64,000 nt of DNA from assembly GCA_963700535.1 (NCBI GenBank), contig CAVOXU010000002.1:88094-152093 (forward strand), written 5' to 3'. Made by a program: the position numbers and the translations under genes. The notes under the pieces were generated by a model. The model worked only from the letters and a program-made list of their open reading frames with translations, searched no databases and was not told the DNA's origin. This document shows, piece after piece, positions 3,134-11,822 of the stretch; position 1 is the first letter of the stretch; every line of letters starts with the position of its first letter. Source of the stretch: Chrysiogenales bacterium. GTDB taxonomy: Bacteria; Acidobacteriota; Aminicenantia; UBA2199.

Positions 3134-4333
3134 TTATTCGATGGCGATGGCGATCTTTTCGCTCATGAATTTTTTAATGTCCAGAATGGTGATGGTCACG
3201 CTTTTGCCGATTTCGTAGAATTCGACTTTATAATCCCTGTCCTGTTTGAAATAGCTTGGATAAATGGTTATGTCCTTGATCTTGCTGAGCTGGAAATCGG
3301 CCGCGGCGGCGGTGATCTTCGGGTCGCCGCGCAGGTCCAGCGAACGGTCGAACATGGTGATGTCGACTTTCTGCAGCTTGGTGGAGCGCAGGAAGCCACC
3401 CTTGATGATGCCGTTTTTTGTCAGGTTTTTGCGCAGGTCCATGGCAAAATAGACAGAATTGAGGGCGGCCTGCATTTCCTGGTTCTGATCGTTGAGATTG
3501 CTCATTTTACCCAGCATGTTCTGTTTTTCCTGGTTGAGCAGGTCCAACTGGGAGATCAGCTCGCTGCGCCGGAGTTCCATTTCATCTATATCACTTTGCA
3601 ATTGATCCTTTTCGGCGATGGCTTTGTCCTTGGCGTCGACCAGTTCTTTTTTCACTTTTCTCTGGATCTGGTTGGGGGAGATGGGGGCGCTGCCCTGAGT
3701 GATGAAGGTGCCGTATTCGTCTTCGGCATAGAAGTTCCAGATCTTGAAGCCGGGAACGATCGGCTCGAAGAGCAGGGTCCTTTCCACCAGTTCCATGGCC
3801 CGGGCCTTATCCACGCCTTTTTCATTGAGCAGGAAATTCATGGCGATCTGGTAATGGTTCTCTCCCTTTTCTACCAGGTGCGGCTTGGGAAGCAGTGTTT
3901 CCAGTTCCTGAACCCTGGCGTTCAGGTTATGTATGTCGTTGTTCTTGTCCAGGATATCCTGGAGAAGTGATTTAATGGAGACGTCTTTCTCATTTTTTAT
4001 CTTTTCTTCCAGGACCTTTTTTTGCTCGGGAGAGAGGTTCATGATATTGACTTCGGGAAGGTCTTCGCCTGTCTTGGTTTTGTAGTCGCTTAAAATATCG
4101 AAAACTTCGTTCTGCTTTTCCTGGATGCTCGTTTCCAACTGCTGGATCTGCTGCACTGTTTCTTGCATCTGCTTCATTTTTGGTGAGAGCTGGGGGCCTG
4201 CCGGTCCTTTGAAAACAAAATAAGCCAGAACCAGGATCACCAGAGCCAGGGCGCCGATGACATAGTAGGGTTTTTTTGATTTTTTTTCCGTCATGCTCTC
4301 CTGGAATGGAACTTTCGGTTGTTCTTGGGTCAT
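3134..4333 (-). CDS. Membrane-anchored coiled-coil protein, hypothetical
   Basis: 399 aa. Strong AGGAGG Shine-Dalgarno, one N-terminal TM helix, then a long heptad-rich, K/E/Q-rich region. No recognisable catalytic motif. Confidence 0.55.
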   Translation of the reverse strand: MTQEQPKVPFQESMTEKKSKKPYYVIGALALVILVLAYFVFKGPAGPQLSPKMKQMQETVQQIQQLETSIQEKQNEVFDILSDYKTKTGEDLPEVNIMNLSPEQKKVLEEKIKNEKDVSIKSLLQDILDKNNDIHNLNARVQELETLLPKPHLVEKGENHYQIAMNFLLNEKGVDKARAMELVERTLLFEPIVPGFKIWNFYAEDEYGTFITQGSAPISPNQIQRKVKKELVDAKDKAIAEKDQLQSDIDEMELRRSELISQLDLLNQEKQNMLGKMSNLNDQNQEMQAALNSVYFAMDLRKNLTKNGIIKGGFLRSTKLQKVDITMFDRSLDLRGDPKITAAAADFQLSKIKDITIYPSYFKQDRDYKVEFYEIGKSVTITILDIKKFMSEKIAIAIE

Positions 4334-6825: not shown

Positions 6826-8070
6826 TTGGAGGGAAAATTGATCCTGGCCGCCAAATTCCTGCTGCTTGTCGTTCTGCTGATCCTGCTTCTGCGCTTGAAG
6901 GTCGAACTCTCCCTGGCTGTTTTTGCCATCACCCTGCTCACCGTGGCCCTGTTCGGAGTCAACCTGTTCAAGGCCGGAGAGAGCGCCTGGGCGGGAGTAA
7001 GCGATCCCCAGACCCTGGAGTTGTTCCTGATCATCATCCTGGTGCAATATATAGGCGCCGTGCAGAAAAGCCGGCGCATGTACGACCGCCTGATCGATTC
7101 GCTCAACACCATGATCCGCGACAAGCGCCTGGTGGCCATGGTCTCTCCGGCCATTATCGGTTTTCTGCCCATGCCGGGAGGGGCGCTGCTCTCGGCGCCG
7201 CTGGTCCAGGTTTCCACCGATAAAATGAAGCTGAAGCCGGCTTTCAACGCTTTCCTCAACTTCTGGTTCCGTCATGACTGGGAACTGATCTGGCCGCTCT
7301 ATGCCGGACTGCTGCTTTTCCAGACCTTGTCGCGCATACCGATGCGCCGCATCATTTTGTTCCAACTGCCGTTTTCGATCCTGCACATCAGCACCGGCCT
7401 GGCCGTTTCCTTCTGGTATTTCCGCCGCCACGGGATTCAACGGCAATATCCGGGTGCGAGCAATGGCATAAACGCCACGGTGCGCGACTTCTTTTCCGGA
7501 ACCTGGCCGATCATGGCAGTGGTGCTGCTTTTCTTCGTCAAGGTACCGCCGCTGCTGCCGCTGCCGCTGCATTGGGCGCTGCTGCTGGTAGCCGCGATCT
7601 TGAGCGTATGGAAAAAAGTCGCTGCCAAAGAGATGGTCGCCGTTATTTTCGGGAAATCCACGATCCGCAGCCTGCTGGTCATTGCCGCGGTCATTGTCTT
7701 TCAGCGCATCATTCAGATTTCTTCAGCGTTTGACACGCTCAAGACCATGGACATCTCCCTGGGCCTGGCCGTGGCTTTCATTTTCATGGTTTCCTTCACC
7801 GTGGCTTTTCTGACCGGGGTGAACACGGCCTACATCGCCATCGCTTTTCCGGTCCTCCTGCCCCTTATCCAGCACCTGCCCAATTACTTTTACCTGTCGC
7901 TGTACATTTATGTGGTCGGATTCGCCGGCATCCTGGTCTCGCCGCTCCACCTCTGCCTGGTGCTGACCAATGAGTATTTCGGGGCTTCCCTGCTCGACGT
8001 CTACCGCTACATGGCGATACCGATATTCGTGATGATTGCACTGGCGACGGGGCTGGTAATGATCCTTTAA
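6826..8070 (+). CDS. DUF401-like polytopic membrane protein
   Basis: 414 aa, about 10-12 predicted TM helices. Confidence 0.5.
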   Translation: MEGKLILAAKFLLLVVLLILLLRLKVELSLAVFAITLLTVALFGVNLFKAGESAWAGVSDPQTLELFLIIILVQYIGAVQKSRRMYDRLIDSLNTMIRDKRLVAMVSPAIIGFLPMPGGALLSAPLVQVSTDKMKLKPAFNAFLNFWFRHDWELIWPLYAGLLLFQTLSRIPMRRIILFQLPFSILHISTGLAVSFWYFRRHGIQRQYPGASNGINATVRDFFSGTWPIMAVVLLFFVKVPPLLPLPLHWALLLVAAILSVWKKVAAKEMVAVIFGKSTIRSLLVIAAVIVFQRIIQISSAFDTLKTMDISLGLAVAFIFMVSFTVAFLTGVNTAYIAIAFPVLLPLIQHLPNYFYLSLYIYVVGFAGILVSPLHLCLVLTNEYFGASLLDVYRYMAIPIFVMIALATGLVMIL

Positions 8071-8133
8071 ATGAAATCGGTATAAGGTTTAGGGTATACG
8101 GTGGACGGTGAAGACAAAAGAGAGTAATAATTA

Positions 8134-8161
8134 GTAGTGACAGGTCGCGACCTGTCACTAC
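8134..8161. repeat. REP-like 28-bp perfect palindrome, copy 1
   Basis: gtagtgacaggtcgcgacctgtcactac, followed by the flank ccgatgatga. Confidence 0.85.
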
Positions 8162-8182
8162 CGATGATGAAATAAAATATAA

Positions 8183-8710
8183 ATGATTCATCAACGTAAA
8201 TACATGCGTTTGCGTGGTTGGGATTACACATCTCCCGGTTGGTATTTTATGACGATCTGCGTGAAAAACAAGGAGTGCTTCCTAGCTGATATTGTAAATG
8301 GGAAAATTATTCCGAATGAGTTCGGAAAAATCGTTGAGTCACGATGGGTTTGGCTTAGAAATCAATATCCTTATGTTGAATTGGACGCTTTTGTCGTCAT
8401 GCCGAATCATGTTCATGGATTGGTTCGGATCGTCAATCCGTCTGTAGTGACAGGTCGCGACCTGTCACTACTGATGATTCCGGAGAAAATCAAATCTTTA
8501 TCCGAAATAATTGGTGCTTTTAAAATGACTTCTTCCAAGGACATCCATTTGGCTGGCTTTCCCAATTTCTTCTGGCAGCGGTCTTTTTATGAAAAAATTA
8601 TTCGTTCGGAACAGGAAGCAAATGCGGTTCGTAAGTATATCAGGGAAAATCATTTGAATTGGGAACAGGATGATGAGAATCCCGACATTGATTTCCGTAA
8701 AATTCCGTAG
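8183..8710 (+). CDS. REP-associated tyrosine transposase (RAYT, IS200/Y1 HuH family)
   Basis: HuH motif MPNHVHGLV and a catalytic Tyr context (WQRSFYEKI). Flanked by REP palindromes, and a 36-nt in-frame palindrome-derived insert encodes SVVTGRDLSLLM. Confidence 0.7.
   Translation: MIHQRKYMRLRGWDYTSPGWYFMTICVKNKECFLADIVNGKIIPNEFGKIVESRWVWLRNQYPYVELDAFVVMPNHVHGLVRIVNPSVVTGRDLSLLMIPEKIKSLSEIIGAFKMTSSKDIHLAGFPNFFWQRSFYEKIIRSEQEANAVRKYIRENHLNWEQDDENPDIDFRKIP
8444..8471. repeat. REP-like 28-bp palindrome, copy 2 (inside the RAYT coding sequence, in frame)
   Basis: Identical 28-mer to copy 1. Confidence 0.85.
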
Positions 8711-8734
8711 TGACAGGTCGCGACCTGTCACTAC
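8707..8734. repeat. REP-like 28-bp palindrome, copy 3 (overlaps the RAYT stop codon)
   Basis: Identical 28-mer. The TAG stop at 8708-8710 lies inside the palindrome. Confidence 0.85.
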
Positions 8735-8754
8735 CGACACCGTGGAATAATTCG

Positions 8755-8783
8755 GGACGATCCCGGTCACTACCGATGATGAT
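8755..8783. repeat. Degenerate REP half-copy
   Basis: cgggacgatcccggtcactaccgatgatga shares gtcactaccgatgatga with copy 1 and its flank. Confidence 0.5.
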
Positions 8784-9756
8784 TACGCAATTATCCCGTT
8801 TTCTTTCAGGACCTTTAAAAATCTCTGCACGCCCAGGCCGTCGACCAATTGCCTTCCGGCTGCGCCCATTTGCTCGCGGTGCTCCCGGGTAAGCGGGGCG
8901 ATCATATCCCGGAATGCATCGATTGTCAGGGCCTCCAGTTTGCCGAAGGCAAGGCCGGCCTGGTGATCGGCCCAGGCGGCTGCCGTAATTGCCTGGCCGG
9001 GCTCCTGATAAAAATACGCGCCGGCGTGCCGATGGCCGCGGCTTCCAAGGTCTCGTTGCCGGCCGGGATCAGGGCCAGGTCGGCCTCGAAATAGGCACGG
9101 GCCGGGCTCTCGCTCTTGCCGCAAAAATGGCTGCCGGGATAAATTTTCATCAAGTTGCGCTTGTCGGCTTTTTTTAGGCTCAATCCAGGCGCTATCCTCA
9201 TTTTGAAATGCAGGCGATGCAGGGTATCGACGATGTGGCGCAGGTCGCGGTAGGGGAGATGATCGCCCAAATTAACAAAGACATTTTTTATGGTTTTGCG
9301 GTATTTTCTTTTGGCTTGGTGAAAATGGCGGAACTTGTGATGCAGCAGGGCGTATGCCGGGCCGGATATGACGATCGCTCCGGCCGCAGCCTGGTTAATC
9401 ACTGCGCTCAATGGCTGCAAAATGAGGTCAACTGGCTGACAGGCGCTGCCGGCATTGACGAACTGCATGGTTTTTATTCCGGCTTTCTTTGCTTTCTCCA
9501 GCAGGGTGCTGTCCGGAGTGGAAAAGTGGGGCAGGTCGAAGATTATGGCCGTGATCCCGGTCAGATCCATGGTGCCCGGATCTGCACCCAGTTGGGCGGG
9601 AATGTTTTTTTCAGCCAGATATTTCGCTGCTTTCTTGTCTTTGCTGTTAAGGATCAGCACCGGGGTGTTTTTTTTCAGGAGAGCTGCCAGCCAGGAGCAG
9701 CGGCGCAAAGGCTGCAGGCCGGATTGCGGTGCGGGGTCGGTGCGAAAGACGATCAT
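8783..9756 (-). CDS. PseG-like glycosyltransferase (GT28 C-terminal / UDP-sugar hydrolase family), with an apparent frameshift near 9010
   Basis: N-terminus MIVFRTDPAPQSG...RRC resembles the PseG/MurG-like fold. A C-terminal block (FGKLEALTIDAFRDMIAPL...) continues in another frame through ORF 8783..9124. Confidence 0.45.
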
Positions 9757-11687: not shown

Positions 11688-11822
11688 CAGGTTCGATGTG
11701 CGGAGTTCGATGTTCGACGTTGGAAAACCTTAAAACGAACAAAACAAGAAAAAATATCGATTATTGCTGATTTACAGATATTGCTTTCTAACCTCGAACT
11801 TCGAACCTCGAACTTCGAACCT
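11688..11822. repeat. Intergenic inverted-arm element, locus C (heptamer gttcgaN units)
   Basis: Left arm aggttcgatgtgcggagttcgatgttcgacgtt. Right arm aacctcgaacttcgaacctcgaacttcgaacctt, followed by a T-rich tract. Confidence 0.65.

Follow-up and report, generated by a model that had tools for sequence, protein, structure and literature searches.

A cassette of about 650 bp (8134..8783, plus strand) on contig CAVOXU010000002.1 of a Chrysiogenales bacterium is, in all likelihood, a REPtron of TnpAY1 subclass 2.4, which consists of a HuH/Y1 endonuclease-transposase together with its cognate double-foot repetitive extragenic palindromic (REP) sequence and corresponds to group 4 of the REP-associated tyrosine transposases (RAYTs). 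All cassette coordinates refer to positions within the 64-kb stretch of this contig that was analysed (the window). One REP copy lies in frame within the transposase gene itself and, judging from homologous loci, this internal copy is inherited with the gene and not newly inserted.

The REP is a perfect 28-bp palindrome, GTAGTGACAGGTCGCGACCTGTCACTAC, with exact copies at 8134-8161, 8444-8471 and 8707-8734, where none would be expected by chance. No further copy occurs in the window, even when a 14-nt arm with up to three mismatches is allowed. The upstream copy (8134..8161; the REPs are annotated without a strand) is a double-foot REP with a GTAG foot, a 10-bp stem, a CGCG loop and a CTAC foot, and lies 22 nt 5' of the ATG at 8183 that opens a plus-strand open reading frame (ORF) of 175 amino acids (8183..8710). 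The corresponding database protein, P0001, begins at the second Met, at 8204, and has 168 residues. The internal copy (8444..8471) falls within codons 87-98 (8441-8476, SVVTGRDLSLLM), between the HuH motif (H76/H78) and Tyr152, and is read with GTA as Val to give the peptide VVTGRDLSL. The ORF terminates within the 3' copy (8707..8734), whose GTAG foot provides its TAG stop codon (8708-8710). In 16 of 74 homolog loci, which span 44-84% identity, translation likewise stops within the foot of a complete or half REP. A fourth, degenerate copy comprises the right arm and 3' flank (8763-8782, CCGGTCACTACCGATGATGA), with 19 of its 20 bases as in 8151-8170, joined to a 5-bp hairpin (8753-8765) to form a remnant spanning 8753..8782. 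Each perfect copy folds into a 12-bp stem with a 4-nt loop, with a free energy of −12 to −14 kcal/mol as single-stranded DNA (z of about −5 to −7) and −21 to −25 kcal/mol as RNA. The first-pass annotation had described these three copies, the degenerate fourth and their placement upstream of the ORF, in frame and over the stop codon, as well as spurious ORFs that encode VVTGRDLSL on both strands, and in all of this it was accurate.

By its motifs and predicted fold the ORF is a RAYT-type (TnpAREP-like) HuH/Y1 transposase, as had been supposed; Pfam, NCBIfam, AlphaFold2 and Foldseek results all bear on this assignment. Pfam PF01797 (Y1_Tnp) matches with 31.8 bits against a cutoff of 23, over the C-terminal half only, since the loop that carries the internal REP splits the domain. 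An AlphaFold2 model based on 45 homologs has a mean predicted local distance difference test (pLDDT) score of 82.8, and the internal REP encodes part of a low-pLDDT loop between the HuH strand (76-83) and the next helix (106-123), a loop whose length varies among the homologs. The best Foldseek match of the model in the PDB is 4er8_A, E. coli TnpAREP with a REP hairpin (E=2.8e-7), followed by the ISDra2 and IS608 TnpA proteins, with 4er8_A, 2xm3 and 2vih all at E values of 1e-5 or better. A single-sequence phmmer search of the PDB found no transposase; the family profile aligned with 4er8 at E=1.5e-4 in two blocks, the stretch from the HuH motif to the W-Q motif being longer by ∼19 residues in the family. 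In an alignment of the 45 homologs, which extends down to about 46% identity (alignment A1), H76 is invariant and H78 at least 90% conserved within PNHVHG (residues 74-79; HuH motif H76-V-H78 at 8408..8416). W131 is invariant within the conserved FWQRSF (residues 130-135; W131-Q132 at 8573..8578, also recovered in the 4er8 profile alignment). The catalytic Tyr152 (8636..8638), in YIRENH, is invariant and aligned with the Y motif of 4er8. The homolog consensus here is YIxxNPxNW, with almost no variation at I153 and N156.

The occurrence of the palindrome in other genomes indicates that it is a genuine GTAG-tagged REP, which agrees with the first-pass annotation. An 18-nt core, GACAGGTCGCGACCTGTC, is found, among the matches listed in GTDB representatives, in Bacteroidota, Patescibacteria, Nitrospinota, Omnitrophota, Chloroflexota, Gammaproteobacteria, Spirochaetia, Fibrobacter, Bacillota and Aminicenantes, and several dispersed copies are present in each of the Pontibacter genomes. 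Among these listed matches most core copies have a GTAG foot on one or both sides. Seven of the 140 listed sites lie in a RAYT homolog, 6 lie within 600 bp of one and 127 have none in their 8-kb locus, and coverage by long ORFs is depleted, at 32% of these sites versus 77% of random positions. In IMG/VR viral contigs there are seven solitary core copies (L203-L209) and a detectable RAYT homolog in none of these contigs, and there is therefore no sign of a phage vehicle.

To place the internal copy in its family, 81 homolog loci (80 metagenomic and one from a metagenome-assembled genome (MAG)) were compared, with RAYTs of 43-84% identity from many phyla. Named sources of homologs include Acidobacteriota, Chrysiogenia, Uhrbacteria, Segetibacter, Spirochaetia, Leptospiraceae and Cloacimonadota. 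The 28 nt analysed in each locus were taken by protein homology to the query palindrome and not by a palindrome search. At this position 49 of the 81 loci have a perfect palindrome (14/14 pairs) and 16 have 13/14, together 65 of 81. The palindrome score is below 9 in only four loci, and three of these four have the palindrome in another, still open, reading frame. An in-frame REP between HuH and Tyr is present in at least 77 of 81 loci, and residues T90-G91-R92-D93-L94-S95 are each at least 90% conserved in A1.

These results bear directly on the view, taken by the first-pass annotation, that a mobile REP had recently jumped in frame into this RAYT and that three identical copies reflect recent activity, which we now consider very improbable. 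The three copies are 28/28 identical and the cassette has a foreign GC content (41% versus 54%), which would allow for a rather recent acquisition of the cassette as a whole, but the segment is found at the equivalent position in virtually every homolog, the most distant at 43% identity, and the window holds no additional copies. The alignment to family members that had been suggested as a check shows the segment to be native, an outcome the annotation itself had named as telling against insertion. Furthermore, two relatives with RAYTs 79-84% identical in amino acid sequence to that of the window, in different hosts and beside different genes, have the same 28-mer three times each, upstream, internal and downstream in the same REP-gene-REP layout. 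One (L001) is a Chrysiogenia MAG with the RAYT between bipA and a DEAD-box helicase gene, and the other (L002), a metagenome contig, encodes a protein, P0002, that NCBI annotates as Acidobacteriota. Beyond the palindrome, these loci agree with the window at 79-82% of nucleotides and at 58-65% of third codon positions. As the 28-mers are shared in spite of such diverged third positions, the identity of the copies reflects constraint or homogenisation and not youth. L001 also has a right half-site (3630-3647) comparable to the remnant in the window. The earlier interpretation therefore stands as regards the RAYT, the REP and the in-frame copy, and fails as regards the copy being recent, unusual and inserted into this particular gene; an in-frame REP is in fact a published hallmark of subclass 2.4 (PMC6006769).

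Two further candidates were rejected. The idea that precise excision of the internal REP might leave a clean gene behind is contradicted by the length of the REP (28 nt, not divisible by three) and by the ORF staying open through it in all homologs. Protein P0065, apparently truncated at the palindrome, merely runs off the end of its contig and is uninformative. REP-encoded peptides also occur elsewhere in some RAYT ORFs: P0084 has a second VGTGRDLSL in its N-terminal region, the other-frame peptide DRSRPV is found in an N-terminal extension of P0063 and a C-terminal extension of P0019, and P0015 has the REP-encoded peptide in triple tandem copy.

What is conserved at the internal position was assessed by asking how its variants differ. 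There are 39 distinct 28-mers, with compensatory differences that change the peptide (for example VGTGRDLSL, VGNGRDRSL, VGTGRDPSL, VGTTRELSL, VGGGRDRPL and VGAGHDPHL). Across an alignment of 36 distinct in-register sequences, pairing is kept in 92.4% of cells (79% in shuffles), two-sided changes are seen in 10 of the 12 stem pairs, and the covariation score is 0.356, versus 0.111 in shuffles (reached by 0 of 500) and 0.03-0.06 in slid controls. Codon pairs that encode the same amino acid are identical in 86.6% of cases within the palindrome versus 49.2% outside it, and the codons of Gly91 (GGT) and Arg92 (CGC) are 97% identical versus 27-35% at conserved Gly and Arg residues elsewhere. Since the stem is kept by compensatory changes and by frozen synonymous sites, the conserved object is the nucleic-acid hairpin and not the peptide. 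The converse reading, in which the peptide V(V/G)TGRDLSL is kept for protein function, the palindrome is incidental and the flanking REPs are decayed RAYT fragments, would account for the conservation of at least 90% in A1 and for some external copies that do sit in RAYT gene fragments. We find it scarcely credible, given that variants such as VGNGRDRSL, VGTTRELSL, VGGGRDRPL and VGAGHDPHL alter the peptide while keeping the stem, that three loci read the palindrome in another frame, that the Gly and Arg codons are fixed, that the region is a low-confidence loop in the model and that 127 of the 140 listed copies have no nearby RAYT homolog and mostly lie outside long ORFs. Conservation of the hairpin may come either from direct selection or from continual homogenisation with other REP copies recognised by the enzyme.

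The flanking copies appear, from a census of the 48 loci in which each flank extends for 400 nt or more, to be less stable than the internal one. The internal copy stands alone in 26 of these, both flanks have a copy in 14, only the upstream flank in 6 and only the downstream flank in 2. Several rearrangements are bounded by REPs, which suggests that the internal REP behaves as a live recombination site. At the bipA/helicase site that has an intact RAYT in L001 (3001-3519), a second contig, L201 (2791-3096), has a RAYT cut short precisely at the internal REP's 3' foot and thereby lacks the 3' half of the gene. The REP unit is triplicated in tandem within the ORF of L007, duplications occur in several other loci, and in L006, L008/L009 and L003/L007 external REPs are followed by RAYT coding sequence that is normally 3' of the internal REP. 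The flank CGATGAT in the window was also considered as a sign of gene-derived external copies and was rejected; it is uninformative because the extended REP consensus is ATTCY-GTAG...CTAC-CGAYG.

Some dispersed REPs are themselves arranged in unusual ways. A Bacteroidetes MAG (JADKIC010000002.1; L105:1891-2296) has 9-10 head-to-tail copies with a 44-nt period, which is below the range of CRISPR arrays and no multiple of three, the unit being GTAGGGACAGGTCGCGACCTGTCC followed by a ∼20-nt spacer, GGGAAAACAATCCACGTAT. In a Chitinophagaceae MAG (CAVRFP010000010.1; L154:4040-4960) a 279-nt unit with two single-foot REPs 77 nt apart in inverted (REPIN-like) orientation is repeated in tandem at least three times. 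Other copies form the centre of much longer perfect palindromes with copy-specific outer arms, both outside RAYT ORFs (L097:1-72 and L101:685-748) and within them (L050:433-486, L065:374-419 and L037:3242-3285), where coding stems reach 26 bp. Among solitary copies, 6 of 35 have at least three extra pairs (1.6% expected), with a maximum of 22 extra pairs. This suggests that the extended palindromes arise by hairpin-templated extension or from collapsed inverted dimers.

The anatomy of the cassette, its fold, the conservation and covariation of the internal copy, the dispersal of the REP and the REP-bounded rearrangements are directly shown by these data, and by analogy the window protein probably binds and cleaves its REP. 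Following the E. coli TnpAREP structure (4ER8), we propose that the enzyme would bind the hairpin in single-stranded DNA, for example in the lagging-strand template, read the GTAG foot, and then cut and rejoin the adjacent DNA, whereby REP copies would be spread and rearranged. With its GTAG and CTAC feet at opposite ends, the perfect palindrome would present an identical substrate on either strand. The internal copy is predicted to fall in a surface loop that is disordered and joins the HuH strand to the next helix, and the foot of the 3' copy supplies the stop codon.

Any benefit of the internal copy is likewise an inference, and its nature can be framed in two ways. The internal REP might be a selected cis-element, either (a) a heritable master copy that holds enzyme and substrate physically together in horizontal transfer and seeds the flanking and dispersed copies, or (b) a self-limiting device, whereby a stable hairpin, formed in the mRNA or in the gene when single-stranded, reduces RAYT expression or turns the gene into its own target. 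This is a possibility to which we give less than even weight. It would fit the internal copy being the most persistent one (alone in 26 of 48 loci), the frozen synonymous sites and compensatory changes that override the peptide, and one REP core in many phyla, as expected if the REP travels within the gene. The external copies that carry coding sequence from beside the internal copy, the truncated allele that ends at the internal REP, mRNA hairpins of −25 and −21 kcal/mol, and the 3' REP over the stop codon in 16 of 74 loci also fit; in E. coli, ribosomes reportedly stall at REPs located no more than about 15 nt from a stop codon (Liang et al. 2015, as related in PMC6006769). However, all of these points also fit a neutral insertion in a permissive loop, which is the view of PMC6006769, and copying may have run from internal to external or in the reverse direction. 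The internal copy may be a neutral passenger that is kept uniform by enzyme activity, gene conversion or template switching within the hairpin. As a tentative proposal, the in-frame REP of this clade would be an obligatory, selected part of the system and not a tolerated insertion, with the substrate hard-wired in the ORF so that gene and REP are inseparable in horizontal transfer and one REP sequence is therefore common to many phyla. If so, the internal copy would seed or exchange with flanking and dispersed copies, and the gene would be its own target, which would limit RAYT dosage.

The composition of the cassette and its recurrence in unrelated contexts raise a further alternative, that it is an autonomous insertion sequence (IS) of the IS200/IS605 type whose outer palindromes are the left-end and right-end hairpins and which transposes as a whole. 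The window cassette (8000-8750) has ∼40-42% GC (RAYT coding sequence about 41%) with flanks and a window average of about 54%, and in the window and several of its closest relatives (L001, L002, L004 and L007) alike the RAYT coding sequence has about 39-46% GC and the flanks 53-61%, an offset that fits horizontal movement or acquisition. A ∼0.65-kb REP-gene-REP unit that is AT-rich relative to each host and found in unrelated contexts in different phyla is what an IS would give, as is the patchy, horizontal-transfer-like distribution of subclass 2.4 (PMC6006769). Nevertheless an autonomous IS is unlikely here. Both ends are identical perfect palindromes, only one copy of the gene is present in the window, flanking copies are absent from more than half of the homolog loci, solitary REPs far outnumber genes among the matches listed, and the nearest fold is TnpAREP and not IS608 TnpA. 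The left-end and right-end hairpins of IS200/IS605 elements such as IS608 and ISDra2 are distinct, imperfect and accompanied by guide sequences.

Several observations weigh against this explanation of the cassette as a REPtron of subclass 2.4 with an inherited, live internal REP. The match to NCBIfam NF047646 (REP_Tyr_transpos; 52.5 bits, E=4.6e-14) is under the curated cutoff of 80, so that the window protein is related to this family yet is no equivalog by the NCBI threshold. The Y motif of the window protein is YIRENH and not the YIxNNP of subclass 2.4. Only three copies are present in the 64-kb window and REP amplification in this genome is therefore unproven. The covariation could arise mutationally through intrastrand template switching in quasipalindromes, or could reflect wholesale replacement by other REP variants and not selection on the internal copy. 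Finally, the evidence for rearrangements comes from a handful of metagenomic contigs, and palindromes can also cause assembly artefacts.

The cassette is preceded by a gene for a DUF401 membrane protein (stop at 8070) and followed by two overlapping minus-strand ORFs that end at 8783 and 8926 (8783..9124, 113 amino acids, and 8926..9756, 276 amino acids), neither with a Pfam match. The end of the first coincides exactly with the end of the REP remnant, and the pair may be a single frameshifted gene or a gene whose 3' end was remodelled by the cassette. A promoter and terminator scan around the cassette gave nothing above chance, and Rfam gave no match in the window. Elsewhere in the window, a 14-nt unit, TTCGAACCTCGAAC, forms 2.6 tandem repeats in an AT-rich intergenic region downstream of an aminotransferase gene (11786-11822).

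The features of the cassette can be compared with those of several known systems. TnpAY1 subclass 2.4 was defined by Quentin, Siguier, Chandler and Fichant (2018, BMC Genomics 19:475, PMC6006769) with the motifs NH[IFV]H, WQ and YIxNNP, a variable insertion between beta3 and alphaC, long double-foot REPs with 5' GT[AG]G and 3' C[TC]AC, and a patchy distribution across phyla. All 100 RAYT group 4 sequences of Bertels et al. (2017) belong to it, and that group is likewise patchy (61 species in 17 classes) with low-copy flanking 16-mers (Bertels, Gallie and Rainey 2017, PMC5581495). The window has the NHVH motif, the W-Q motif, the Tyr, the beta3-alphaC insertion, double-foot REPs within less than 1 kb and the in-frame internal REP, and departs from the subclass in nothing essential, although its protein is shorter (168-175 amino acids versus a median of 194) and its Y motif reads YIRENH. 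The assignment was made by motif, REP type and architecture. The REP sequence of the window was not found in the text portion of the supplement to PMC6006769. That study called it 'a remarkable and unique feature' that tnpAREP genes contain in-frame REPs, in general located between HuH and Y, so that the in-frame REP has been a known hallmark of the subclass since 2018, and it suggested that the loop is peripheral and that REP insertions in it have little impact. In contrast to this permissive view, almost every member of the clade studied here has a REP in the homologous loop, at a variable offset, and compensatory covariation and frozen synonymous sites at the internal REP set the clade apart from that account. 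No follow-up work on internal REPs was found in the literature searched.

With E. coli TnpAREP (YafM; Ton-Hoang 2012; Messing 2012, PDB 4ER8; subclass 2.2), for which alone specific binding and cleavage of a single-stranded REP have been demonstrated (PMC3479197, PMC8266576), the window protein shares the HuH/Y1 fold, a GTAG-tagged hairpin substrate and a gene flanked by cognate REPs; in the E. coli protein the W-Q region has been implicated in reading the GTAG foot (PMC6006769). The two differ in that sequence identity is only ∼19%, the loop from HuH to W-Q is ∼19 residues shorter in E. coli, and the E. coli REP is single-footed, has a bulge in its stem and does not occur inside the gene. IS200/IS605 TnpA proteins (IS608, ISDra2) share the fold and the single-strand 'peel and paste' chemistry on subterminal hairpins. 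Unlike those elements, whose end hairpins are distinct and imperfect and which transpose as complete multicopy units, often together with tnpB, the window has identical perfect palindromes and no tnpB, and its small hairpins disperse alone. The intragenic REPs of Di Nocera, De Gregorio and Rocco (2013, BMC Genomics 14:522) are also GTAG-tagged and in frame in coding regions that survive, but they occur sporadically in host genes, whereas here the in-frame REP is a conserved family trait in the presumed transposase of the REP itself. Beyond what these systems have established, the present comparison adds nucleotide-level constraint on the internal copy, one REP core found across many phyla and mostly without a nearby RAYT, a REP foot that serves as stop codon in 16 of 74 loci, and REP-bounded rearrangements of RAYT genes. 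Together they sharpen the question of what keeps a short non-coding substrate and the enzyme that acts on it matched over long times and across hosts, on which the constraint on the internal hairpin, its retention above that of flanking copies and the breakpoints at it all bear.

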